A DNA stretch of 64,000 bases from Minisyncoccota bacterium (GTDB taxonomy: Bacteria > Patescibacteriota > Minisyncoccia > Phycocordibacterales > UBA9973): contig JAIPHX010000002.1 in assembly GCA_021734995.1 (NCBI GenBank), positions 80,189 through 144,188 of the forward strand, in the 5' to 3' direction. Position numbers and translations under genes: made by a program. A model generated the notes under the pieces. It worked only from the letters and a program-made list of their open reading frames with translations, ran no database searches and was not told the origin of the DNA. This document shows, piece by piece, positions 4,432 to 61,639 of the stretch (its first letter is position 1; each line of letters starts with the position of its first letter).

Positions 4432-5700
4432 CTAAACCTTTAAAATTTTAAGAAATTCACCCTCGTCTTTAAATGGACCAACAATAGCTAGGTTTAACTT
4501 TGTATTTTGAAATATTTCTTTAGCTACCTTTTGCACATCTTTGTTTGTAATCATCCTCAAAGCTTTTGCTTTTTCTTCTGGTGTTCTGATTTTTTCTCTA
4601 AATAATTCTTGTTGTCCATAGAAACTTGCCAAACTACTAGAAGATTCCAAAGAAAGCTTCATATTGCCTATCAAATACTCCTGTGCTTTTTTGACTTCTT
4701 CTTCTGGTACTCCATTTTCTAATATTTTTTTACATTCTTCTAACACTACTTGGATTACTTCTTTCAACCTACCTTTATCTACCCCAGCTGATATTTGAAA
4801 AGAACCATGATCAGTAGAAGTGTCATTGTATGCATTTACATAGTACCCTACCCCCATTTCTTCCCTCAACTTTTCAAACAAACGAGAACTCATCCCTCCT
4901 CCAAGAATAGTGGAAAGTATGGTGATCGCATAATCTCTTTTATTAAATAAATCATAAGACCTAAAACCTAAAATGAAGTGAGCCTGATCAGTGTCTTTGT
5001 AATGCATTAAGACTGCCGGCTTTTGCTGGGTATCTATAGTTTTCTTTTTTGTCCCCTTTTTTGATTTTGGCATCTGCCCAAAAACTTTTTGAGCTTCTAT
5101 CAAAACATCTTTTGTTGTGACATTACCTGCTACCACAAACAGTGTAGCCTCAGGCACATAATGCAATTTTTTGTATTCAACAAAATCATCTTGTTTCATT
5201 GCTAAAATATTTTCTTTTTCTCCAAGAATACTCCACCCTGCTGGCTGATCACCATACAATAGCTTCATAAATATATCTTGCACGAAAATATTTGGCATAT
5301 CTTTGTACATATTCATTTCTTCTATGATTACTCCTTTTTCTTTTTCTATTTCTGCGACAGGTAATGTAGAATTTAAATAAATATCAGAAACAATATCAAA
5401 AATCTTCTTAAAATTTTTGGCACTAGACTTGGCATAATACCCAGTATATTCATAGCTAGTAAAAGCATTATATTGGCTACCAATAGAATCAAGCTCTCTA
5501 GATATATCTATCGCTTTGGGTCTTTTTGTCGTCCCTTTAAAAAACATATGTTCCAAAAAGTGAGAAATACCGTTTACTTTTTTGTCTTCATATTTACTAC
5601 CTGTCTCTACTAAAATCAAAACATTTGCAGTAGGATTGTCTTTCATTGGCACAGTAAGCACTCTCAAACCATTTTTTAAAGTATTTATTTTATATTTCAT
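4432..5700 (-). CDS. M16 family zinc peptidase (insulinase/pitrilysin-like)
   Basis: HxxEH inverted zinc motif (HFLEHMFFKGT) near the N-terminus, 422 aa. Confidence 0.85.
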   Translation of the reverse strand: MKYKINTLKNGLRVLTVPMKDNPTANVLILVETGSKYEDKKVNGISHFLEHMFFKGTTKRPKAIDISRELDSIGSQYNAFTSYEYTGYYAKSSAKNFKKIFDIVSDIYLNSTLPVAEIEKEKGVIIEEMNMYKDMPNIFVQDIFMKLLYGDQPAGWSILGEKENILAMKQDDFVEYKKLHYVPEATLFVVAGNVTTKDVLIEAQKVFGQMPKSKKGTKKKTIDTQQKPAVLMHYKDTDQAHFILGFRSYDLFNKRDYAITILSTILGGGMSSRLFEKLREEMGVGYYVNAYNDTSTDHGSFQISAGVDKGRLKEVIQVVLEECKKILENGVPEEEVKKAQEYLIGNMKLSLESSSSLASFYGQQELFREKIRTPEEKAKALRMITNKDVQKVAKEIFQNTKLNLAIVGPFKDEGEFLKILKV

Positions 5701-5827
5701 AATTATCTATGTATACCACATTTTTATAGTTATATAAAACATCTGCAAGATTTCCATTTTCCAACAAAAAAACTAGATTTACTTTTACGACATCTTTGAG
5801 AGTGTTACTTTCTTGAAATAAACAAAA

Positions 5828-7036
5828 TTAATCTAATTTACTTTTAATATTTAGTATATTATTTTTCTGTTTTGTTAAAGTCATCAACAAATACACTGTA
5901 ACCATAAAAACTCTTCCGAATCTAGATGCTTTTTTATTTTTACGGAACTCTTCCCTATTTTCTAAATCTTTTAATTCAGGGCTAAAATAAATCTTTTTTT
6001 CTTGAAGAAAACTAATATCATCATTAATTAAAGAAATTCCATGATCAACCATTTCACGCAATAATTCATGGTTATTTTTATGCTTAAATTCCAATTCGAA
6101 ATATTTAAAAGTTTGAAGCCAATAATTATAAATATTTTCCATACCTAAAATCTCATCCCCTTCCCCAATCCCCCCAGATGAATATTTATCTAGATTTAGA
6201 TATAAATCATGGTCGGGGTCTTCTTCATCTAAATCTTCATTAAAGTCGTCAATCAAGTCCTCGTCTGGGCCTTCGTCATCTAAATCTTCATTAAAGTCGT
6301 CAATCAAGTCCTCGTCTGGGCCTTCGTCCTCCCAAAAATCATCTTCCTCCCCTTCTAAAACCCCTTGACACCACATATCATAATCAGTGTTTAAAGAAAA
6401 ATGAATATTAAAACCAAAAAGAGAATCGGGTAACATTTCTTTATGAAGTGCTTCTAAATATAATTCTCCACAATCCAATTTATTATATTTTTCCAAATTC
6501 TCTATAATAGAAAAATATCTATTATAAGAAGATTCTAGTCCTTCATTTCCTTCAGAGAATACTGATTCAAAAATATTTAATCTTTTGTATTCATCACTTA
6601 ATTTATGAAAAATTATTAAAAAATCACTTATTTCATCTATATTTTTAACACCATCCATAAAATCATTTACACCAAAAAAAACATCCAGTAAAGATTGGAA
6701 AACATTCTTTAAAAAGAATGAGGTGTCATTATCCAAATTATCTTTATTAAAAGTTCTTAAAAAATCTACATACTTTTTCATATCTTTAACAACAAAATGT
6801 TTCTTTTTTATTATCGTATCAAAGAATTTTATTTCATCTAATTCTAGATTAATAGTTAAACCAATATCTTCAAAAGCTTTTTCAAGCTCAAAAATGTCAA
6901 CATTAATAACTGTATTTACTTTAATTAAAGTTTCTTGAAAGAAAGAATTAAATAATTTAATTCTTTCTTTCAAGTCTAATTTTTTTATTTCAGATGGGCC
7001 TTGAAAATTATTTTGTTCTAAGGGATTATTATCCAT
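5828..7036 (-). CDS. Hypothetical protein with internal acidic tandem repeat
   Basis: 402 aa, no recognised domain; contains EGPDEDLIDDFNEDLDD x2. Confidence 0.55.
   Translation of the reverse strand: MDNNPLEQNNFQGPSEIKKLDLKERIKLFNSFFQETLIKVNTVINVDIFELEKAFEDIGLTINLELDEIKFFDTIIKKKHFVVKDMKKYVDFLRTFNKDNLDNDTSFFLKNVFQSLLDVFFGVNDFMDGVKNIDEISDFLIIFHKLSDEYKRLNIFESVFSEGNEGLESSYNRYFSIIENLEKYNKLDCGELYLEALHKEMLPDSLFGFNIHFSLNTDYDMWCQGVLEGEEDDFWEDEGPDEDLIDDFNEDLDDEGPDEDLIDDFNEDLDEEDPDHDLYLNLDKYSSGGIGEGDEILGMENIYNYWLQTFKYFELEFKHKNNHELLREMVDHGISLINDDISFLQEKKIYFSPELKDLENREEFRKNKKASRFGRVFMVTVYLLMTLTKQKNNILNIKSKLD
6225..6326. repeat. Perfect 51-bp tandem direct repeat (2 copies) inside a CDS
   Basis: tcatctaaatcttcattaaagtcgtcaatcaagtcctcgtctgggccttcg repeated head-to-tail; encodes a 17-aa acidic unit. 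Confidence 0.9.
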
Positions 7037-7052
7037 AAATTTTTTAAAATTA

Positions 7053-8363
7053 TTACAACCTCTCTTTTATATATTCTTCTAAATCTGCAACTTTTACTCT
7101 CTCCTGCTCTCCTGTATCTCTGTCTCGGACGGTCACCGCATCATCAGAAAGAGTATCAAAATCCACTACTATACACCAAGGAGTACCTATCTCATCTTGT
7201 CTGCGATATCTTTTTCCAATATTTCCATTGTCATCCCATGCTACCCTTCCAAAAATTTCTTTTAGTGGGGCAAAGACTTTTACATTTGCATACTCTACCA
7301 ACTCTGGCTTGTTTTTTAGTAAAGGAGAAACTGCACAAATGATAGGAGCGATACTAGGCTTAAGCTTCAAATATGCTCGGATATCTCCATCTTTATCTTC
7401 TTCTGTATAGGCAGAAGCAAGCAAAGCAATTACTGTCCTGTCTACCCCAAAAGATGGCTCTATCACATGAGGCACCATTTTTTCACCTTTTTCTTCATCT
7501 ATATATTCCAAACCATGACTGTTTAAATCAAAATCAGTCCTATATGCTAAGCCATACAGTTCTTTGCGACCAAAAGGAAAATCAAATTCAAAATCTATAG
7601 TTCGTTTGGAATAGTGAGCTCTATCCTCTTCTGACACCTCAAGCTCATGTATCTTACCCATATCTATCCCTATCTCTTCAATCCATTCAAGCATTTCATC
7701 TCTGAAATATTCAAAATACTTTTCCCATTCATCAGCTCGGACAAAATATTCTATTTCCATTTGTTCAAACTCCCTTGTTCTAAATACAAAATCTCTTGGA
7801 GTAATCTCATTCCTAAAAGCTTTCCCAATCTGTGCCATTCCAAAAGGAAGCTTTGGATGAAAAGCATCCACTGTATTTTTGAAATTCACAAATATTCCTT
7901 GTGCAGTCTCAGGACGCAAATATGAAGTAGCTGAAGAATCTTCTACTGCTCCTATTTTTGTAGCAAACATCATGTTAAATTGCTTGGGAGTACTGAGAAG
8001 CTCTTCATCTTCTGGGCAATGTTGAAATCCATCATCCGAAATCTGTATATGATCTTCTCTGTATCTATTTTTACATTTTGGACATTCTACCATTGGATCT
8101 GAAAAATGATCTACATGACCTGTTGCTTGCCACACTTCTTGACGCATCAAGATAGATGCATCCATTCCATACATATCTCTACGATTTTCCACAAAATTTT
8201 TCCACCAAGAATTTTTAATATTATTCTTCAAAGCTACTCCTAGATGAGCATAATCCCAAGCCCCAGCAAGCCCTCCATATATTTCAGATCCTTGAAATAT
8301 AAATCCTCTCCTTTTACATAGAGATATTATTTTTTCCATCAATTCTTTTTGTGTATTTTCCAT
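7053..8363 (-). CDS. glyQS: Glycyl-tRNA synthetase (class II, single-chain type)
   Basis: 436 aa; RRGFIFQGSEIYGG...AWDY start, class II motifs, GlyRS anticodon-binding C-terminus. Confidence 0.9.
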   Translation of the reverse strand: MENTQKELMEKIISLCKRRGFIFQGSEIYGGLAGAWDYAHLGVALKNNIKNSWWKNFVENRRDMYGMDASILMRQEVWQATGHVDHFSDPMVECPKCKNRYREDHIQISDDGFQHCPEDEELLSTPKQFNMMFATKIGAVEDSSATSYLRPETAQGIFVNFKNTVDAFHPKLPFGMAQIGKAFRNEITPRDFVFRTREFEQMEIEYFVRADEWEKYFEYFRDEMLEWIEEIGIDMGKIHELEVSEEDRAHYSKRTIDFEFDFPFGRKELYGLAYRTDFDLNSHGLEYIDEEKGEKMVPHVIEPSFGVDRTVIALLASAYTEEDKDGDIRAYLKLKPSIAPIICAVSPLLKNKPELVEYANVKVFAPLKEIFGRVAWDDNGNIGKRYRRQDEIGTPWCIVVDFDTLSDDAVTVRDRDTGEQERVKVADLEEYIKERL

Positions 8364-8367
8364 ATAT

Positions 8368-10296
8368 TTATTGTATCACCCTATCTCCTGTAGGGGGGAA
8401 AGAAGGATCATTGGATAATCTAGTATTTAAAGAAGACTTATTGATCCTTACTCCTACATTAGCAAAATCATCCTGTCCCGTAAAGATGGTATCATTTATC
8501 AATGTTGGTGGTGTCCCAAGCTGGGAAAGTGATGGTAAAAGTTCTATCTGAAAACTAACCTCCCTACTTGAGCCCGTCACGCCAATTCCGCGCATCAATG
8601 TTCCAATATTCCAAACTATTTCTTTAGTAGAAGGATTGTAACTCAAGTCTTCAGATGGTGGAGAAACTGGGCCTACAAAGCTAGCCCAAGGAGGAAGTGA
8701 TGTTTTTACTTGAGCTCGTGAGATATTGTTGGCAGTATTGGATAGAGACCACACCACAGTATATGTAGTCTTTTGTTCTACTCTTGGTGGAATAGGACCA
8801 GAATTTTTAAATGCTCCAGAATAATATAATATTTTTGATACAAATCCTGCTTCGGTTATAATACGAATATTTTTTGATTCAGAGTTTTTTAGTTCATTTA
8901 TAGCATAACCATCAGAAGCTTGCCTACCTGCAATAGATACTTCTATGTTTATAGATGGATCAGACAATATACCATTTGTTCCACCAAGCAATGCTAATGG
9001 AGAAAGAGAGAAGCTAACATATCCAGATTTTCCAGGAGGTATGTCAGCAAACTCTTTTAGAGAATTTTTATCCCATACAATAGTATCTTGGGCAGAATTA
9101 TAAAAACCATCTTTCACTTCAATTTTTGATTCGTCTAAAGCATTTCCAGAAAGCTTGGCTCTTATCTGCATATCTGAAATTTTTGTATCCATATTGTTTA
9201 CCCATTTTATTTCTCCTTGTAATTTTGACTTAGTATCTACCGCATATTCATTCTGATAAACACCATTTATAAAAAGATTGGCTGCGATGAACGGCTTTTT
9301 AACAAACACTGTATGGCTTAGGGAATTAAAGACAGTGCCTATCTCAGTCTTGTCTACTAGATTTTCAGAACCACTCCAAACTTTAAAGTTCTTTTCTTCC
9401 CCATCATAAACATCCACCATCTTACCAGTCAAAGTGATTTCTTTTTCTCCTCCTGGAGGTAAATCTCCTAAATTCCAAATATTATTACCAATCACAGGAG
9501 AGGGTCTTGCTGATTGGAATTGAAAACCTACAGGATAGTCTATTTTTATAATCATTCTCTGCACAGATCTTGTCGCATTAAGTTGTGCTTTTATTCTCAA
9601 GGAAATATCTTGATTTGGACTAATCTCCTTTGGTCCTTCTACTAAAATATTTACTGGAGTAGAGCTAATAGACACTTCATATGGTTTTTCTTTTACAAAG
9701 ATAGCATTAGAACCTGCTACTCTATATTCAAGTAAAAATTTAATAGGTTTAATACTTCCCTGTTCTCCAAAAAGCACTACTTTTATATTCTCATTTTTTA
9801 CTCCACCAGAAGGAATACTTCCTAAAGAAACACGCAATTTTTCTGTATCTTTATTAAGGTCAGAAGAAGCACTTCTTGGATATTCCACAAGCAAATCAGC
9901 CAACTCTAGAGCAGAGGTGTTGCGATTGATAATTTCTATTTGAAGAGGCAATTCCTCCCCTCCTCCTGTGAAAGCATTACCCAGCACGGATATTTCAATA
10001 TTTTCATTTGAAATAGTATTTCCTTTTCCAACAAAGTTATAAAAGGCAAAAACAGAAGCAAGTACAAAAAATATTATTGAAAATATAAAGAATTTTTTAA
10101 AGATTGAAGTTTGCATAAATATTTTTTCTGGCAAAAGAAATTTTTTATCTTCTTTATCCCAAGTATCCGAAACTTTATGCTCCAAACTATCATGATGAAA
10201 TTTCATATCACTACGAATTTTCATTTCATAATTTTTACTGTAAAGTTTGGTTTTTAAATCTTCAAGTCTGTTCAGTTTTTCTGAGTCTCGCGCCAT
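8368..10296 (-). CDS. Hypothetical membrane-anchored protein with large extracytoplasmic domain
   Basis: 642 aa; ~65-aa cytoplasmic N-terminus, single TM (FFIFSIIFFVLASVFAFY), Ser/Asn-rich beta-like remainder; 4 nt upstream of glyQS. Confidence 0.55.
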   Translation of the reverse strand: MARDSEKLNRLEDLKTKLYSKNYEMKIRSDMKFHHDSLEHKVSDTWDKEDKKFLLPEKIFMQTSIFKKFFIFSIIFFVLASVFAFYNFVGKGNTISNENIEISVLGNAFTGGGEELPLQIEIINRNTSALELADLLVEYPRSASSDLNKDTEKLRVSLGSIPSGGVKNENIKVVLFGEQGSIKPIKFLLEYRVAGSNAIFVKEKPYEVSISSTPVNILVEGPKEISPNQDISLRIKAQLNATRSVQRMIIKIDYPVGFQFQSARPSPVIGNNIWNLGDLPPGGEKEITLTGKMVDVYDGEEKNFKVWSGSENLVDKTEIGTVFNSLSHTVFVKKPFIAANLFINGVYQNEYAVDTKSKLQGEIKWVNNMDTKISDMQIRAKLSGNALDESKIEVKDGFYNSAQDTIVWDKNSLKEFADIPPGKSGYVSFSLSPLALLGGTNGILSDPSINIEVSIAGRQASDGYAINELKNSESKNIRIITEAGFVSKILYYSGAFKNSGPIPPRVEQKTTYTVVWSLSNTANNISRAQVKTSLPPWASFVGPVSPPSEDLSYNPSTKEIVWNIGTLMRGIGVTGSSREVSFQIELLPSLSQLGTPPTLINDTIFTGQDDFANVGVRINKSSLNTRLSNDPSFPPTGDRVIQ

Positions 10297-54714: not shown

Positions 54715-55722
54715 CTATTTTCTACTATGAAATTTTTTATGCACCTCTCTCAAAGCTTTATCAGTGAAGTGAGTATATACCTGAGTGGTCGAAATATTTG
54801 CATGTCCAAGCATTATTTGAACGCTACGAATATCTGCACCGTTAGAAAGTAAATCTGTAGCAAAAGAGTGTCTTATTACATGCGGTGTAACTTTTTTTGA
54901 AATCCCTGCTTTTATAGCATAGTATTTTACCAATCTTTCTATGGACCTAGTAGTAAGTCTGGTCGGAGCTTTTTGAGAAGCACTTTTGTTTTGTTTTTTC
55001 TTTTCACCATTTCCCTCTTTTCCATCTTTTATTTTTTTATTACTTTGGTTTTTTTCTTCTTTCGCGCCAAACCTATTTGGAATATTTACAAACAAGGCTT
55101 CTTCCATATCTTTTCTTTTTGCTAAATATTCTTTGATTACTTTTTTAGCACTATCTGACAAAAAAACTACCCTGATTTTTTCTCCCTTGCCTCTTATGGA
55201 AAATTCATCTTTAGACAAATCTAAATCTCTATTCAAAGAAACAAGCTCGGAGACACGAAGACCTGTAGAAAAAAATAATTCTAAAATTGCTTTATCTCTC
55301 AGATCTTTTAAATCATTTCCGTCTGGTCCTGCGAGCAACCTCCCAAGCTCCTCTACGCTTATCAAATCCAATCCCCTTTCTTTTGTTTTTGCTAGTTCTA
55401 TTTTATCTGGAGCAATAGCTTGTATCCCTCTTTTATTTAAAAATTTTAAAAAAACTCGCAAAGCAATCAAGTAATAATTCTGCGTATTTTTCTTCATAGT
55501 GCTTTCTGTCTGCCCACGAACCTTTGCTCCTTTTTGTCTATTTAAAAATAATCTAAACTCTCTAATCTTATCTTCAGAAATATCTCTAGGAGAATTTACT
55601 CCTGAAAATTCAAAAAATCTTGTAAGGTATCTTTCATAATTAGCAACAGTTTTTAAGCTTGAGCCTTTCTCAATCTCTAAATATTCTAAAAACCCTCTTT
55701 TTAACTTATCCATTTCTTTCAT
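54715..55722 (-). CDS. Tyrosine recombinase XerC/XerD family
   Basis: N-terminal SAM-like domain; catalytic R...HVIRHSFAT...LGHANISTTQVYTH; lysine-rich low-complexity insert. Confidence 0.85.
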   Translation of the reverse strand: MKEMDKLKRGFLEYLEIEKGSSLKTVANYERYLTRFFEFSGVNSPRDISEDKIREFRLFLNRQKGAKVRGQTESTMKKNTQNYYLIALRVFLKFLNKRGIQAIAPDKIELAKTKERGLDLISVEELGRLLAGPDGNDLKDLRDKAILELFFSTGLRVSELVSLNRDLDLSKDEFSIRGKGEKIRVVFLSDSAKKVIKEYLAKRKDMEEALFVNIPNRFGAKEEKNQSNKKIKDGKEGNGEKKKQNKSASQKAPTRLTTRSIERLVKYYAIKAGISKKVTPHVIRHSFATDLLSNGADIRSVQIMLGHANISTTQVYTHFTDKALREVHKKFHSRK

Positions 55723-56724: not shown

Positions 56725-57303
56725 ATGGATTACAAAACTATCTTGGGTGGCATTTCGATAGCAATTCAACTCTTTGCTTACTTTATATATTTTAAAGGAA
56801 TCTATAACGGGAAAACAAAGCCTCATGCTTTTACTTGGTTTGTTTGGGGAGTGCTGAGTATTATCGGCTTTAGTGCTATATACACATCAAATGGAGGAGC
56901 TGGATCATGGCTTACTTTTGTAAATATTATTGCTTGTTTTGCTGTAGCCACCATTGGGATAGTTCAAAAACATGTGAAATATGATAAATATGACTGGCTT
57001 GCTTTATTTGGTGCTTTGCTTGGAGCAGGCCTTTGGTGGATTACTAAAAATCCATTATATGCTGTAATATTAATATCTATATCTGATTTCATTTGTGTAA
57101 TACCAACATTAAGAAAAGCTTACAGGTTCCCTTTTGAAGAAAACGCCTTATCTTTTAGTATGGCTCTGATGTACTATCCTTTATCAATATTAGCACTAGA
57201 GTCACTTACCGTAACAACATGGCTCTACCCTGCCTCTATTGTTTTCACTGATATGTTTTTGGTTTGTATGATTTTGTGGAGGAGGAAAACATTAACTAAA
57301 TAA
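56725..57303 (+). CDS. Hypothetical polytopic membrane protein
   Basis: 192 aa, ~6 predicted TM helices; no domain recognised. Confidence 0.5.
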   Translation: MDYKTILGGISIAIQLFAYFIYFKGIYNGKTKPHAFTWFVWGVLSIIGFSAIYTSNGGAGSWLTFVNIIACFAVATIGIVQKHVKYDKYDWLALFGALLGAGLWWITKNPLYAVILISISDFICVIPTLRKAYRFPFEENALSFSMALMYYPLSILALESLTVTTWLYPASIVFTDMFLVCMILWRRKTLTK

Positions 57304-58698
57304 TTATTTTAAAAAGAAGTCATCAACAAAACCAAAATTGTTTTTTCTTTTATATATATCTTCTGAGATATAATAGAAATAAGGTTTTTTATGTTTAACT
57401 TTTATTTTTATAATCCCCTTGATACATTCTTTTACATTATTAACAGACATTCCAGACTCAACAGATGCTTCCTGTATGAATTTTTCATAAACATTCGCAG
57501 GGCAACCACCATCTAATCTAGTCCTAGCTGAAACTTTTTTTGCTAAATCATAAATAGCATGATTCATCCCCTTCTTATTGTTTTTATTATCAGGAGTTAC
57601 TATTTGTATTTCAAATCTTTTATCTTTTTTTAAACCACCACCAAGATTCTTAGCAGAAACAATACCTGTAATAACAATAGCTTTGTATTCACCCTGAGAT
57701 GTAGCGTTTTTTTCTACTTTTTTATCAATAGTACTTTTAATTTTAATTTTTTTTGAAAACTTTTTATTTTTATTTTTATTTATATTTTTATTTATATTTT
57801 TTAAATCATCAGAACTTAATAAATTAATATCCTCAAAGAGAACATTTTCCACATGCATTTGATTGATTAACCAACCAATCAAAACTTCAGAAATAACTGG
57901 TATATCTTCCTGTTCAATTGAAAGCTTAAAACCAACACCATCTTTTAATGCTTCTTGGATGTTTGCTTCTGGTCTATTTATAAATCTTAAAATAACCTTT
58001 TCAAAATCTTTGGCTCTAGAATTTATTTTTCCTTTTTTATCACCAAATTCTCTCAAGAAGAAAAGTTTGTCACCTTTTCCGTCTGTAGAAATAGAAATAA
58101 GTGGTGAATCTACTTTATTGTCACTAATCATTTTTGATTCGAATAAATCTTTTGCTTTATTTAATTCATTAGCTTCATTCTTTAGTGTCTCATATATAGC
58201 AATCATAACTTTTACTAAACGACAAAAAACTAAAGATTTAGCTAAGGCATGTTTATTACCATTTTCTTTTTTTGCTTTTTGAGTATTTCTAAGGATATAG
58301 AAGATATCTTCTTTAGAACTAATAGATTTTGGAAAATCTTCCACATTTACAAACAAATCTCTTTCAGAATAAAGCAAAACATTTTCCATAAAATCAAAAG
58401 ATTGATTAAAAGCTTTATTTAATCTAGTAAAGACTTCTTCAGACTCTTTACTTTTACCTTCCTTTAAAATTAATTCACTTTTTATATCTAAAACCTTTTC
58501 AATCCAATCTAAAAAAACTTTTTCTTCTGTTTTACCTTCCATATCTGGTAATACTGTAAAATTAAAATCAATTGGTGTTGGTCTTTGTTTTGTAGGGATG
58601 TCATCAAAATCCCCTGCCATCATTTTACCAAAAGAGTCAATTTGCTTTTTTGGGTCTCCAATAGTTCTTTTATCTAAATATGGTAAATTTTCTTTCAT
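57304..58698 (-). CDS. Hypothetical protein with RelA/SpoT-like (RSH) nucleotidyltransferase motifs
   Basis: 464 aa; KGKINSRAKDFEK ... ALKDGVGFKL (D.xG.[RK][IL]) ... GEYKAIVITG ... RFEIQIVT..H.IY (EIQIRT-like), in the order and spacing of the RSH synthetase fold; K/N-rich low-complexity insert. Confidence 0.45.
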   Translation of the reverse strand: MKENLPYLDKRTIGDPKKQIDSFGKMMAGDFDDIPTKQRPTPIDFNFTVLPDMEGKTEEKVFLDWIEKVLDIKSELILKEGKSKESEEVFTRLNKAFNQSFDFMENVLLYSERDLFVNVEDFPKSISSKEDIFYILRNTQKAKKENGNKHALAKSLVFCRLVKVMIAIYETLKNEANELNKAKDLFESKMISDNKVDSPLISISTDGKGDKLFFLREFGDKKGKINSRAKDFEKVILRFINRPEANIQEALKDGVGFKLSIEQEDIPVISEVLIGWLINQMHVENVLFEDINLLSSDDLKNINKNINKNKNKKFSKKIKIKSTIDKKVEKNATSQGEYKAIVITGIVSAKNLGGGLKKDKRFEIQIVTPDNKNNKKGMNHAIYDLAKKVSARTRLDGGCPANVYEKFIQEASVESGMSVNNVKECIKGIIKIKVKHKKPYFYYISEDIYKRKNNFGFVDDFFLK

Positions 58699-58714
58699 AA
58701 AAATATTTTATAAT

Positions 58715-60220
58715 TTAAACTCCATGTTTTTGGTGGAGTTGTTTTACTTCTAATTCTTCTAATTCTTCTTTTTTATCTTTCCCCTTCTTCCCCAATTTCT
58801 GTAATTCTTTATCTGAAAGATTGTTTAATTTTAACACAATTTCAGATAAGATTTCTATTGTATTTTTAGAAGGATCTTCTAATACTTCTTCCAAAAGAGC
58901 ATTTAAAATCCAGCCCATTCTTGGTCCAGCACTAATTCCTAAATTTTTCATCATAAAATTACCATCTATTTTTAGCTGGGAAACTGAAATCGGATCATGT
59001 AATGCTTCTTCTATCATTGCGAAATATTTACGCAAACGATAAGGGGCTTCTTTCTTTTTCATTCCTACCCTATCGCACTCTCTTACTTGCATTAGCCCCC
59101 AAATGTTTTCTTTAGATACTTTAGTAATAATTCTACGCACAGCGGAAAGAGTTATGGTTTCTGTATCTGAAAAAAACATATGATTGCGAATTAATTTTTC
59201 CACAAGTTCTATTTCTTTTTTAGAAAATTTTAATCTCTCTAAAATATTTTTAGTCATTCTTGCTCCCACAACCTCATGCCCATAAAAAGTATACTTCCCT
59301 TTTCCTCCTGCTTTGCTTTGGTCAAATCTTCTAGTGCGAGGTTTCCCAATATCATGAAAAAGCGAAGCTAGCCTTATTTCTAAAGGCCATTTTTTGATTG
59401 CAGAATGTTCCATAGCGTGCAATAAATGATTCCATATATCATAGATATGTTCTCCTAGTTGCTCGCACCCAATCCCCTCTTCTAGTTCAGGAATTATGTT
59501 TTTCAATATGCCAAACTTTTGCAACATTGTAATTCCCACTGCAGGAGAATCTGACATAATTATTTTTACAAATTCATCTCTGATTCTTTCGGCAGATATT
59601 TTTTTTATTAAATCTACATTTTTCAAAATACTTTCTGTTGTTTCGTGTGAAATAGAAAAATTTAATTGAACAGAAAAACGAACAGCTCGCAACATTCTCA
59701 GAGCATCTTCTTGAAATCTTTCCTCCGCTTCTCCTACTGTCCTTAATATCTTTTTTTCTATGTCTTTTAGTCCATCAAACATGTCCATTACTTGTCCTTT
59801 ACTATCCATAGCGAGAGCATTTATAGTAAAATCGCGTCTTTTAAGGTCGTCCGATAGATTTTGACTAAACCTAACATCATCAGGATGTCTAAAATCACTA
59901 TATTCTGCCTCTGTTCTATAAGGAGTTACTTCAATTATCATATATTCTGTTCCTTGTGAAACGGCATCTTTTGTGGTTTCATAAGGAACACACACAGCAA
60001 CAGTACCAAAAGTATTCTCATACACTGTCTTGTCAAAAAGTTTAACAATTTCCTCAGGGACAGCATTTGTAGTAATATCCCAATCCTTTGGCTCTAACCC
60101 CAAAACAAGATCTCTAACACACCCCCCTACTAAATAGGACTCGAATCCATTTTTTTCTAACGTGTGCGTTACATGTAAAACCTCTTTTGGTATTTTTTTA
60201 AGATCTATATTAAATTTCAT
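58715..60220 (-). CDS. cca: CCA-adding tRNA nucleotidyltransferase with C-terminal HD domain
   Basis: Pol-beta head GGCVRDLVLG..DWDITT, RRDFTINA; HD domain LFHDIGKP; start set at MKFNIDL (ORF track's upstream GTG at 60232 would overlap the tRNA-Arg 3' end). Confidence 0.85.
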   Translation of the reverse strand: MKFNIDLKKIPKEVLHVTHTLEKNGFESYLVGGCVRDLVLGLEPKDWDITTNAVPEEIVKLFDKTVYENTFGTVAVCVPYETTKDAVSQGTEYMIIEVTPYRTEAEYSDFRHPDDVRFSQNLSDDLKRRDFTINALAMDSKGQVMDMFDGLKDIEKKILRTVGEAEERFQEDALRMLRAVRFSVQLNFSISHETTESILKNVDLIKKISAERIRDEFVKIIMSDSPAVGITMLQKFGILKNIIPELEEGIGCEQLGEHIYDIWNHLLHAMEHSAIKKWPLEIRLASLFHDIGKPRTRRFDQSKAGGKGKYTFYGHEVVGARMTKNILERLKFSKKEIELVEKLIRNHMFFSDTETITLSAVRRIITKVSKENIWGLMQVRECDRVGMKKKEAPYRLRKYFAMIEEALHDPISVSQLKIDGNFMMKNLGISAGPRMGWILNALLEEVLEDPSKNTIEILSEIVLKLNNLSDKELQKLGKKGKDKKEELEELEVKQLHQKHGV

Positions 60221-60227
60221 TTTTTTG

Positions 60228-60299
60228 TGCACCCGGAGGGAATCGAACCCCCACCAACAGTTCCGAAGACTGTTGTGATATCCATTTCACCACGGGTGC
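60228..60299 (-). tRNA. tRNA-Arg (anticodon TCG)
   Basis: Manual cloverleaf: acceptor GCACCCG/CGGGTGC, D-stem GTGA/TCAC, anticodon stem ACAGT/ACTGT with loop CTTCGGA, T-loop TTCGATT; 72 nt. Confidence 0.8.
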
Positions 60300-60551
60300 T
60301 TTTTAAATAAACTAATAACTATAGTATTATACACTTTTTATTGTTTTATAAAAGGAGCTTACTTAATAACAAATAAACACGAAAAACCATTTTCAATTTT
60401 ACTTGATGTTGAGAAATAACTACGTTTTATATGTTTTTAATTTAATGTCTAAAAAAATATAGAAAAACAAAATTTAATACTTAGAATAATTAAACACTTA
60501 AAATATTTTCATAAATCATTAAAAATCATTAAAAAAGTAGGTACAGGAGAA

Positions 60552-60580
60552 TTGCAATATGGGTTTGATGATAGTATAAT
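60552..60580 (+). promoter_or_regulatory. Candidate sigma-70 promoter for tRNA-Gly(GCC)
   Basis: TTGCAA-N17-TATAAT ~65 bp upstream of the tRNA. Confidence 0.4.
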
Positions 60581-60646
60581 ATTCAATGTTCTTTTAGAAA
60601 AAAAATTAAAATGGACTGAGCTTTGCAGAAAAAGCTTCAGTTAAAA

Positions 60647-60717
60647 AGCGGTCATGGTTTAGTGGTAGAACACGTCCTTGCCAAGGATGAGACGGGAGTC
60701 CGATTCTCCCTGACCGC
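60647..60717 (+). tRNA. tRNA-Gly (anticodon GCC)
   Basis: Acceptor GCGGTCA/TGACCGC, anticodon stem CGTCC/GGATG with loop TTGCCAA, T-stem GGGAG/CTCCC; 71 nt. Confidence 0.85.
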
Positions 60718-60982
60718 ACAACTTAGTGTCTATTTAATTATTCTTTATATGTCCTTTATATCTATCTTTTAAAATAAAGATATACTGTGAATATGTGGAT
60801 AACTTTGTGGGTATTGTTTATAAAGGACATATTTAAACTGTCTAATAAAAGACCAAAAAACCAAATATATGCTTATAATATAAGGTTATCTTAATAAAAG
60901 ACACTAAAAAATAATAAAGTGTTTCACGTGATAGAAGTTTCATAAAGAACCATTATTTAAAATTTATATCTTGCTTATATAA

Positions 60983-61399
60983 ATGCCTAAAATATTTACT
61001 TCTGAAGCTCAAAAAATAGGGGAATTGGGGGAGAAAATTGCTATTAAGTTTCTTATGAAACACGATTTTTTAATAAAAGAACGAAATTATACTAAAAAAT
61101 GTGGTGAAATTGACATAATTGCCTTTAAAAACAACAAACTCTATTTTGTAGAAGTTAAAAGCAGTTTAAAACATCAAAAAAAGTTATCCAGTGGAGGAAA
61201 TCCAGGTTATTCTTCTGAATATAATCCGGCAGACAATGTCCATTATAAAAAGAGAAGGCGATTATCTAAAACAATCCAAATGTATCTATTTGAAAATGAA
61301 ATCCAAAACACTAATTACCAGATAGATCTAATAATTGTAAATATTGATATAGAGAACCGAAAGGGCTCTATAAAAGTGGTAAAGGACATAATCTTGTGA
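60983..61399 (+). CDS. yraN: YraN family (UPF0102) endonuclease-like protein
   Basis: GELGEKIA.KFL...GEIDIIAF.....FVEVK matches the UPF0102 PD-(D/E)xK-like signature; sits between tRNA genes. Confidence 0.65.
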   Translation: MPKIFTSEAQKIGELGEKIAIKFLMKHDFLIKERNYTKKCGEIDIIAFKNNKLYFVEVKSSLKHQKKLSSGGNPGYSSEYNPADNVHYKKRRRLSKTIQMYLFENEIQNTNYQIDLIIVNIDIENRKGSIKVVKDIIL

Positions 61400-61427
61400 T
61401 ATACTCAATTTGTTTTCAGTACATCTT

Positions 61428-61498
61428 CGGGCTGTAGTATACCGGTAGTACAAGCGCTTTGGGAGCGTTTAGACTGGGTTCGATTCCCAGCAGCCCGA
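61428..61498 (+). tRNA. tRNA-Pro (anticodon TGG)
   Basis: Acceptor CGGGCTG/CAGCCCG, anticodon stem AGCGC/GCGTT with loop TTTGGGA (G37), T-arm CTGGG-TTCGATT-CCCAG; 71 nt. Confidence 0.85.
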
Positions 61499-61565
61499 CA
61501 ATAATAAAAAACCTTGTTTTAGAATATAAATTTGATATACTTACTTTCGTAAGAAAATAATAAAT

Positions 61566-61639
61566 GCGGGATTAGTTAAATGGTATAATAACAGTTTTCC
61601 AAACTGTGGTCAGGAGTTCGATTCTCCTATCCCGCACCA
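61566..61639 (+). tRNA. tRNA-Gly (anticodon TCC), 3' CCA encoded
   Basis: Acceptor GCGGGAT/ATCCCGC, anticodon stem ACAGT/ACTGT with loop TTTCCAA, T-arm AGGAG-TTCGATT-CTCCT, followed by ACCA. Confidence 0.85.

Follow-up and report, generated by a model that had tools for sequence, protein, structure and literature searches.

The question raised by this locus is what kind of enzyme is encoded by an unannotated open reading frame (ORF) of 464 amino acids (aa), which lies beside a gene for a CCA-adding enzyme (cca) and a tRNA-Arg gene on contig JAIPHX010000002.1 of a Minisyncoccota bacterium. The whole stretch of DNA analysed, 64 kb in length, is called the window here, and the ORF is called the target. 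RelA/SpoT homologue (RSH) enzymes make the alarmones (p)ppGpp and (pp)pApp, and some of the toxic members cap tRNA ends. A first-pass annotation of the window had read the target as an enzyme of RSH fold possibly wired to CCA repair. In our study, the target is found to be a very divergent RSH relative, which is well supported by homology and fold similarity, and it belongs to a family from the ultra-small Patescibacteria (the Candidate Phyla Radiation, CPR). The ORF and its parts are as follows.

57304..58698, minus strand: target ORF, 464 aa, an unannotated RSH-like family member from Patescibacteria (CPR)
58114..58698, minus strand: N-terminal alpha-helical domain, aa 1-195, with conserved residues of its own (T41, D44, C159, K163 and E170)
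57502..58113, minus strand: RSH synthetase-type (SYNTH) domain with a Pol-beta-like nucleotidyltransferase fold, aa 196-399
57688..57813, minus strand: K/N-rich low-complexity insert, aa 296-337, directly before the G-loop, delimited from the alignment and the predicted local distance difference test score (pLDDT)
57304..57501, minus strand: C-terminal alpha/beta tail, aa 400-464, with the stop codon, delimited from the secondary structure of the predicted model

Alone, the target gave nothing useful against Pfam (E<=1), NCBIfam, PADLOC, PHROGs and the PDB sequences. When the profile of 123 family members was searched against all PDB sequences, nine matches were obtained at E<=10 and all nine are RSH chains, with YwaC as the best (E=0.004), followed by Rel, FaRel2 (E=0.03) and RelA. 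The Pfam family RelA_SpoT (PF04607) was matched by 32 of the 100 family members scanned singly, with a best E value of 1.1e-6, and the next commonest Pfam family was matched by four of the 100 at most. Two members, P0132 (31.3 bits) and P0106 (29.2 bits), lie above the PF04607 gathering cutoff of 27 over the whole model; they belong to the family at E=2.3e-7 and E=7e-15, respectively, and P0106 also bears a precomputed PF04607 assignment. The search with PF04607 which the first-pass annotation had proposed was therefore negative for the target itself, with no match even at E<=10, and positive for its homologues. The link to the superfamily is thus not new in kind, as a RelA_SpoT domain can already be recognised in some of the distant members. 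Moreover, hhalign comparison of the family with E. coli SpoT and RelA has placed the SYNTH region and all the motifs in register (P=1e-4, with a two-sequence template), and the alpha/beta nucleotidyltransferase fold of the target is closest to the solved RSH synthetase domains. The match of SpoT itself to YwaC has an E value of only 1.7e-6, and a distant RSH subfamily is therefore expected to score in the range observed here. Hence, the RSH-fold call of the first-pass annotation is supported by the family profile against the PDB, by the PF04607 matches of the members and by the register of the residues.

Residues of the target were matched to those of known enzymes by sequence and profile alignment (HMMER and hhalign, which were mutually consistent) and were read against the FaRel2-APCPP structure of PMC11782079. 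The elements matched in this way are the following.

57985..58017, minus strand: R228-x-K230...K234...R238, donor-ATP triphosphate-binding motif, aligned with FaRel2 R64, K66, S70 and K74
57925..57942, minus strand: D253-G-V-G256-F-K258, the catalytic Mg2+-binding Asp, the Gly and the adenine-stacking basic residue, aligned with FaRel2 D90, G93 and R95
57685..57687, minus strand: Y338, acceptor-side G-loop aromatic residue, aligned with FaRel2 Y128
57598..57612, minus strand: E363-I-Q365-I-V367, counterpart of the EIQIRT strand with Arg replaced by Val, aligned with FaRel2 E145 and Q147 and with EVQIRT of SpoT
57550..57561, minus strand: H380-A-I-Y383, counterpart of the RSH H-W-x-Y-K helix motif, from the hhalign and HMMER alignments

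In FaRel2, R64, K66, S70 and K74 bind the triphosphate, D90 is the Mg2+-binding catalytic Asp, G93 and R95 contact the adenine, Y128 is a G-loop residue stacking on the acceptor, and E145 and Q147 of the beta5 strand contact the donor adenine (PMC11782079). The motifs quoted in the first-pass annotation are all present in the 464-aa ORF in the order it gave: KGKINSRAKDFEK holds R228 and K230, ALKDGVGFKL holds D253, GEYKAIVITG holds Y338, RFEIQIVT holds E363 and Q365, and HAIY consists of H380 and Y383 with the two residues between them. As for its question whether the DGVG Asp and the EIQIV(T) Glu fall on RSH catalytic residues, the two align with the catalytic D90 and with E145 of FaRel2. The D253 region also aligns with the DxxxxR motif of SpoT, and Y338 with the Tyr of GYRSLH in YwaC and of NGYQSLH in SpoT; FaRel2 Y128 is F128 in the crystallised variant. 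Further, the family pattern N-x-N-E-x-G-x-x-x-H-x-I-Y corresponds to the A-E-x-G-x-A-A-H-W-x-Y-K helix of SpoT.

Conservation was read from the columns of the 123-member family alignment, in which the aligned full-length members are no more than 17-39% identical to the target. K230, D253 and E363 are conserved in 100% of the members, so that the motif residues, whose conservation in homologues the first-pass annotation had set as a point to be checked, are indeed retained. R228 is conserved in 99%, R394 in 95%, Q365 in 89%, Y383 in 88% and H380 in 87%, and position 238 is Lys or Arg in 100% of the members. Gly is present at position 256 in 70%, and Arg or Lys at position 258 in 81% (family consensus Arg), while position 234 is Lys in the target and Ser in the family consensus. 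Since the motifs stand at the only invariant or near-invariant columns of this alignment, they are more than a chance resemblance. Every residue with which FaRel2, RelP or Rel binds Mg2+ or the triphosphate and adenine of the donor ATP is conserved. The conservation pattern is that expected of a maintained ATP/Mg2+ active site, and as K230, D253, E363 and the other residues have been retained despite such low identity, the target is predicted to be an active pyrophosphotransferase.

Three parts make up the architecture: an N-terminal helical domain, which is novel, an RSH synthetase domain that has diverged deeply, and a C-terminal tail, which is short. The N-terminal domain is acidic across the family, with D44 and C159 near-invariant. 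A reading of these 195 aa as a degenerate HD hydrolase, which would have made the target a truncated long RSH, was rejected; the region is a helical bundle and not an HD hydrolase. For the SYNTH domain, the family medians are a net charge of +1 and a pI of 8.0. The tail, of about 65 residues in the target, is basic (family median pI 9.1), and its Y443, R451 and W452 are conserved in most family members. The K/N-rich low-complexity insert described in the first-pass annotation is real (about aa 296-337) and was modelled with low confidence, pLDDT being below 50 at residues 325-336; in the alignment it is longer in the target than in the proteins of its relatives. An insert of similar character, rich in K, N and E (KEEKNQSNKKIKDGKEGNGEKKKQNKSASQK), is present in a XerC/D-type tyrosine recombinase at 54715-55722 on the minus strand, which suggests a tendency towards inserts of the K/N-rich type across the whole genome.

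Ten homologues of the target were found at 33-38% identity, one of them being an identical database entry, and all the source-named ones come from metagenome-assembled genomes of Paceibacteria. An exhaustive profile search has given 153 cluster representatives at E<=1e-3, most of them of 440-510 aa and matched over their full length, and every named source in the whole family is a Paceibacteria/Patescibacteria genome. The taxonomy of the distant metagenomic members was inferred from their gene context only. Word-indexed homologue searches added little: one with the 123-sequence alignment gave one new protein only, and one with P0106 returned P0106 itself and one other. No relatives were found in IMG/VR, the INPHARED phages or the PLSDB plasmids. 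Some members are longer, namely P0083 (894 aa), P0123, P0136 and P0143 (about 680 aa) and P0089 (639 aa), with N-terminal extensions of 150-330 residues, in which no Pfam match and no known fused domain were found; in P0083, two separate stretches match the family profile. In the library searched, nothing relevant was found on (p)ppGpp in CPR/Patescibacteria, and no paper that links these bacteria to any RSH enzyme. What appears to be new here is the family, with the architecture it has and its confinement to genomes of CPR type. The paper of Jimmy et al. (2020), with its 30 small alarmone synthetase (SAS) subfamilies, makes no mention of CPR in the main text.

The explanation which we favour, with moderate confidence, is that the target is an active RSH pyrophosphokinase which uses a nucleotide acceptor and is regulated by its extra domains. 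It would act as an ATP-dependent pyrophosphotransferase, moving the beta,gamma-pyrophosphate of ATP to the 3'-OH of a ribose acceptor, and the flanking domains are probably regulatory. The acceptor is the least certain part; if it is a free purine nucleotide, the target would be a (pp)pNpp-type alarmone synthetase of reduced genomes, encoded on the chromosome in the housekeeping neighbourhoods of Paceibacteria and related Patescibacteria. A free nucleotide is favoured over tRNA because the gene has a housekeeping context without a partner, the SYNTH domain is non-basic, the N-terminal domain is acidic and no toxin-antitoxin or defence features are present.

A number of observations weigh against this explanation. 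The PKxNGYxSxH acceptor motif of (p)ppGpp synthetases is not found; the family has N331..S334..[F/Y]338...K342 in its place, and at the positions of the Lys, Asn and His of the motif the target has T333, G336 and V342 (Lys being the family consensus at 342). The Arg of EIQIRT is V367 in the target and Val in 72% of the members. At G-loop position 338, Phe is the majority residue (60%, with Tyr in 33%), and the Tyr to Phe change at the G-loop impairs catalysis in FaRel2, PhRel2 and FaRel and has been used to disable toxic SASs (toxSASs) (PMC11782079). Judged from the sequence, the acceptor pocket is atypical and seems to have been remodelled. Also, no partner hydrolase has been identified in the visible DNA, which is 64 kb of the genome, and the tight arrangement of tRNA, cca and target in its clade would suit a tRNA-related role. 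No canonical RSH was found in the window either, again within the 64 kb visible.

In comparison with the known enzymes, the target would work most like a small alarmone synthetase, and it seems to lie outside every characterised subfamily that could be tested. In contrast to RelQ/SAS1 (YjbM) and RelP/SAS2 (YwaC), it has an additional N-terminal helical domain of 195 aa, and its C-terminal tail is of another kind; neither PKxNGYxSxH nor the EIQIRT Arg is conserved in its family, and the target falls below the PF04607 threshold. With FaRel2, and also with PhRel2 and CapRel-SJ46, it has the same catalytic core: R64, K66, K74, D90, G93, R95, Y128, E145 and Q147 of FaRel2 all have counterparts in the target, and both FaRel2 and the target family are without the Arg of EIQIRT (Asn in FaRel2, Val in the family). 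FaRel2, however, keeps the K..N..G-Y-x-G-x-H motif of the G-loop, whereas the target family does not. The toxSASs further differ in genetic context, as no antitoxin gene is adjacent to the target to form a bicistronic operon, its neighbours are housekeeping genes which vary with the lineage, and no mobile or defence context is present; the SYNTH domain of the family is also not basic. The RSH enzymes of the long type, namely Rel, RelA and SpoT, carry an N-terminal HD hydrolase or pseudo-hydrolase domain which the target does not have, and the TGS, helical, ZFD and ACT domains are also absent from it, with only about 65 residues after SYNTH and no Pfam match to TGS or ACT. For the secreted or exported synthetases Tas1 and SaSAS, the similarity is lower, and the target lies outside a secretion-system context.

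The strongest rival to the nucleotide-acceptor explanation, though rather unlikely in our estimate, is that the target is a tRNA 3'-end pyrophosphokinase coupled to cca, which would cap the 3'-CCA with pyrophosphate, in the manner of FaRel2, PhRel2 and CapRel, and so throttle translation, with the HD domain of the cca product or another hydrolase removing the cap. It starts from the genes next to the target.

58715..60220, minus strand: cca, class-II CCA-adding enzyme with an HD domain, directly upstream of the target with a 16-bp gap
60228..60299, minus strand: tRNA-Arg(TCG) with no encoded CCA, found by ARAGORN and Rfam, 7 nt before the cca start

The first-pass annotation had described cca as carrying an HD domain, and this is confirmed by Pfam and NCBIfam matches above threshold. 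The Pfam domains are PolyA_pol (8.9e-36), RNAbd, HD (8.6e-12) and tRNA_NucTran2_2, and the NCBIfam CCA tRNA nucleotidyltransferase model, with a cutoff of 290, scores 298 bits. The protein has an intact GG.VRD...DxD motif, with the HD dipeptide at residue 289. Its start is likely the ATG at 60220 and not the GTG at 60232 called by the ORF caller, because the latter overlaps the tRNA. That the tRNA-Arg abuts the cca start was also correct, with 7 nt between the two. The 3' end of this tRNA reads ...GGGTGC-A-CAAAAAAATG, in which the A is the discriminator. The 16-bp gap and the common orientation of cca and target likewise held, but the target had been placed upstream of cca; it is downstream, because tRNA-Arg, cca and target are all on the minus strand and are transcribed in this order. 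From the spacing, the orientation and the fact that the coding strand has no called terminator, the three probably form one transcription unit. A hairpin with a 7-bp stem (AACTCCA-N9-TGGAGTT) at 58718-58740 ends at the cca stop codon; it is terminator-like on the plus strand only and could modulate read-through into the target gene.

This tRNA-Arg belongs to a tRNA cluster at 60228-61639, which comprises Arg-TCG (minus strand), Gly-GCC, Pro-TGG and Gly-TCC (all plus strand). Only the tRNA-Gly(TCC) at 61566-61639 encodes a 3' CCA, and the other three need CCA addition. The Rfam scan of the 64-kb window has found these four tRNAs only and no alarmone riboswitch. On the other side, the target is convergent with a gene for a multi-pass membrane protein of 192 aa (56725-57303, plus strand), with zero spacer, as the stops end at 57303 and 57304.

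The neighbourhood was examined in close relatives, 11 of them from GTDB genomes, and in more distant members, including eight metagenome loci of a second subgroup. Where upstream DNA of the close relatives is available, the genes run in the order UPF0102, tRNAs, tRNA-Arg (tRNA-Gly in L008 and L013), cca and target, and a tRNA immediately 5' of cca is conserved throughout the clade. In L008 (3957-4304) and L013 (4047-4276), the divergent pair of tRNA-Arg and tRNA-Gly(GCC) is inverted, so that tRNA-Gly precedes cca. The tandem of a CCA-less tRNA, an HD-bearing cca and the target, with gaps of 7 nt and 16 bp in the window, keeps its arrangement in all of these relatives, and this speaks for the capping of tRNA ends. 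RSH toxins do pyrophosphorylate tRNA CCA ends, and HD-type small alarmone hydrolase (SAH) enzymes can reverse it (bioRxiv 10.1101/2021.04.30.441581). Moreover, the remodelled acceptor pocket and the missing Arg of EIQIRT, which is also missing in the tRNA-targeting FaRel2 (EIQFNT), would be compatible with such a substrate, and the extra N- and C-terminal domains with the basic C-terminal tail could bind RNA.

Outside this clade the arrangement is absent. In the 13 loci, duplicates included, that were examined for seven distinct distant members, no cca gene was found in the flanks, nor is there any conserved partner gene across the family, the neighbours being unrelated housekeeping genes which differ by lineage, as listed below.

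P0115: pyrF and gyrB
P0050: murB and a CTP_transf_like gene
P0070: a MiaB-like radical-SAM gene and thrS
P0100: groES and groEL
P0106: Peptidase_U32
Second subgroup: smc, uvrB, def/leuS, atpC/DUF4349 and murC/murG

At locus L037, the leucyl-tRNA synthetase directly downstream of the family member (6446-9805, about 1,120 aa) has an alpha/beta-hydrolase domain (Abhydrolase_1 and Ser_hydrolase matches) inserted at residues 580-735. An alternative genetic code considered for L035 was rejected as an ORF-calling artefact at a contig edge.

Even among the close relatives, cca and target are separated in L010 by a gene on the opposite strand (5247-5819), which encodes an orthologue, 58% identical, of the 192-aa membrane protein of the window. 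In the comparison of L001-L018, identity is 31-39% for the target, 67-74% for cca, 47-57% for UPF0102 and 39-74% for exoIII; the target therefore evolves much faster than its neighbours, yet its catalytic residues are invariant. Since the clade is shallow, as the cca identities show, and the surrounding synteny is kept anyway, the adjacency may be simple inheritance, and it reflects synteny within a shallow clade and not a functional coupling which defines the family. The neighbourhood check proposed in the first-pass annotation is thus positive for the close relatives with upstream DNA and negative for all seven distant members, and the claim of wiring to CCA repair is unsupported in this form, none of the 13 distant loci having the adjacency. 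A CCA-repair module is unsupported as a family property, and what is possible is a clade-specific co-transcription. Further features argue against tRNA capping. In the toxSASs, the groove for the CCA is deep and strongly basic (PMC11559606), whereas the SYNTH domain of this family is near neutral and its N-terminal domain is acidic, and the HD domain of cca is of a different HD family from the pyrophosphate-removing SAH/Mesh1 enzymes. A bolder form of the same idea, which we regard as quite improbable, is that in this clade a housekeeping RSH-type enzyme, transcribed together with a CCA-less tRNA and cca, would reversibly cap tRNA 3' ends with pyrophosphate as a translation brake in dormancy or host detachment, with uncapping by the HD domain of cca; if true, it would mean a chromosomal, non-toxin use of toxSAS chemistry and a new repair activity of CCA-adding enzymes.

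Less probable than tRNA capping by a cca-coupled enzyme, and unlikely in its own right, is an RSH-derived domain in which the chemistry has changed or catalysis has been lost, whether by use of a non-nucleotide acceptor, by nucleotidyl transfer or by a role as an ATP-binding regulator or scaffold. In its favour are the same remodelled pocket, the missing QIRT Arg, a G-loop position that Phe occupies in most members, and an N-terminal domain which is conserved, its D44 and C159 being near-invariant; however, the invariance of K230, D253 and E363 and the near-invariance of R228, Q365, H380 and Y383 over about 120 sequences at 17-39% identity argue for a working active site. A fused toxin-antitoxin or anti-phage sensor of CapRel type, a type also mentioned in the first-pass annotation, in which the flanking domains would restrain a toxic RSH domain until a trigger, is very improbable: the low identity of the target beside that of cca does recall the fast evolution frequent in conflict-related genes, but in all lineages examined the gene keeps a stable, syntenic place on the chromosome with housekeeping genes around it, outside any prophage, defence island or mobile context and with no conserved small partner gene, no copies were found in the phage, plasmid and IMG/VR collections, the PADLOC scan of the target gave nothing significant (sole match at E=0.04), CapRel scores below the plain SAS enzymes, its C-terminal pseudo-zinc-finger domain is apparently not shared, and no YXXY motif stands out as conserved in the tail.

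This study has revealed an RSH-like family in CPR whose ATP-donor site is complete, whose acceptor pocket is rebuilt and whose N-terminal domain is new, and which extends the sequence space and the domain architectures of the RSH superfamily. About 150 clusters of 'hypothetical protein' can be labelled as RelA/SpoT-like pyrophosphokinase-domain proteins. The family is hence a concrete candidate for stress signalling or translation control in these ultra-reduced and mostly uncultured bacteria.

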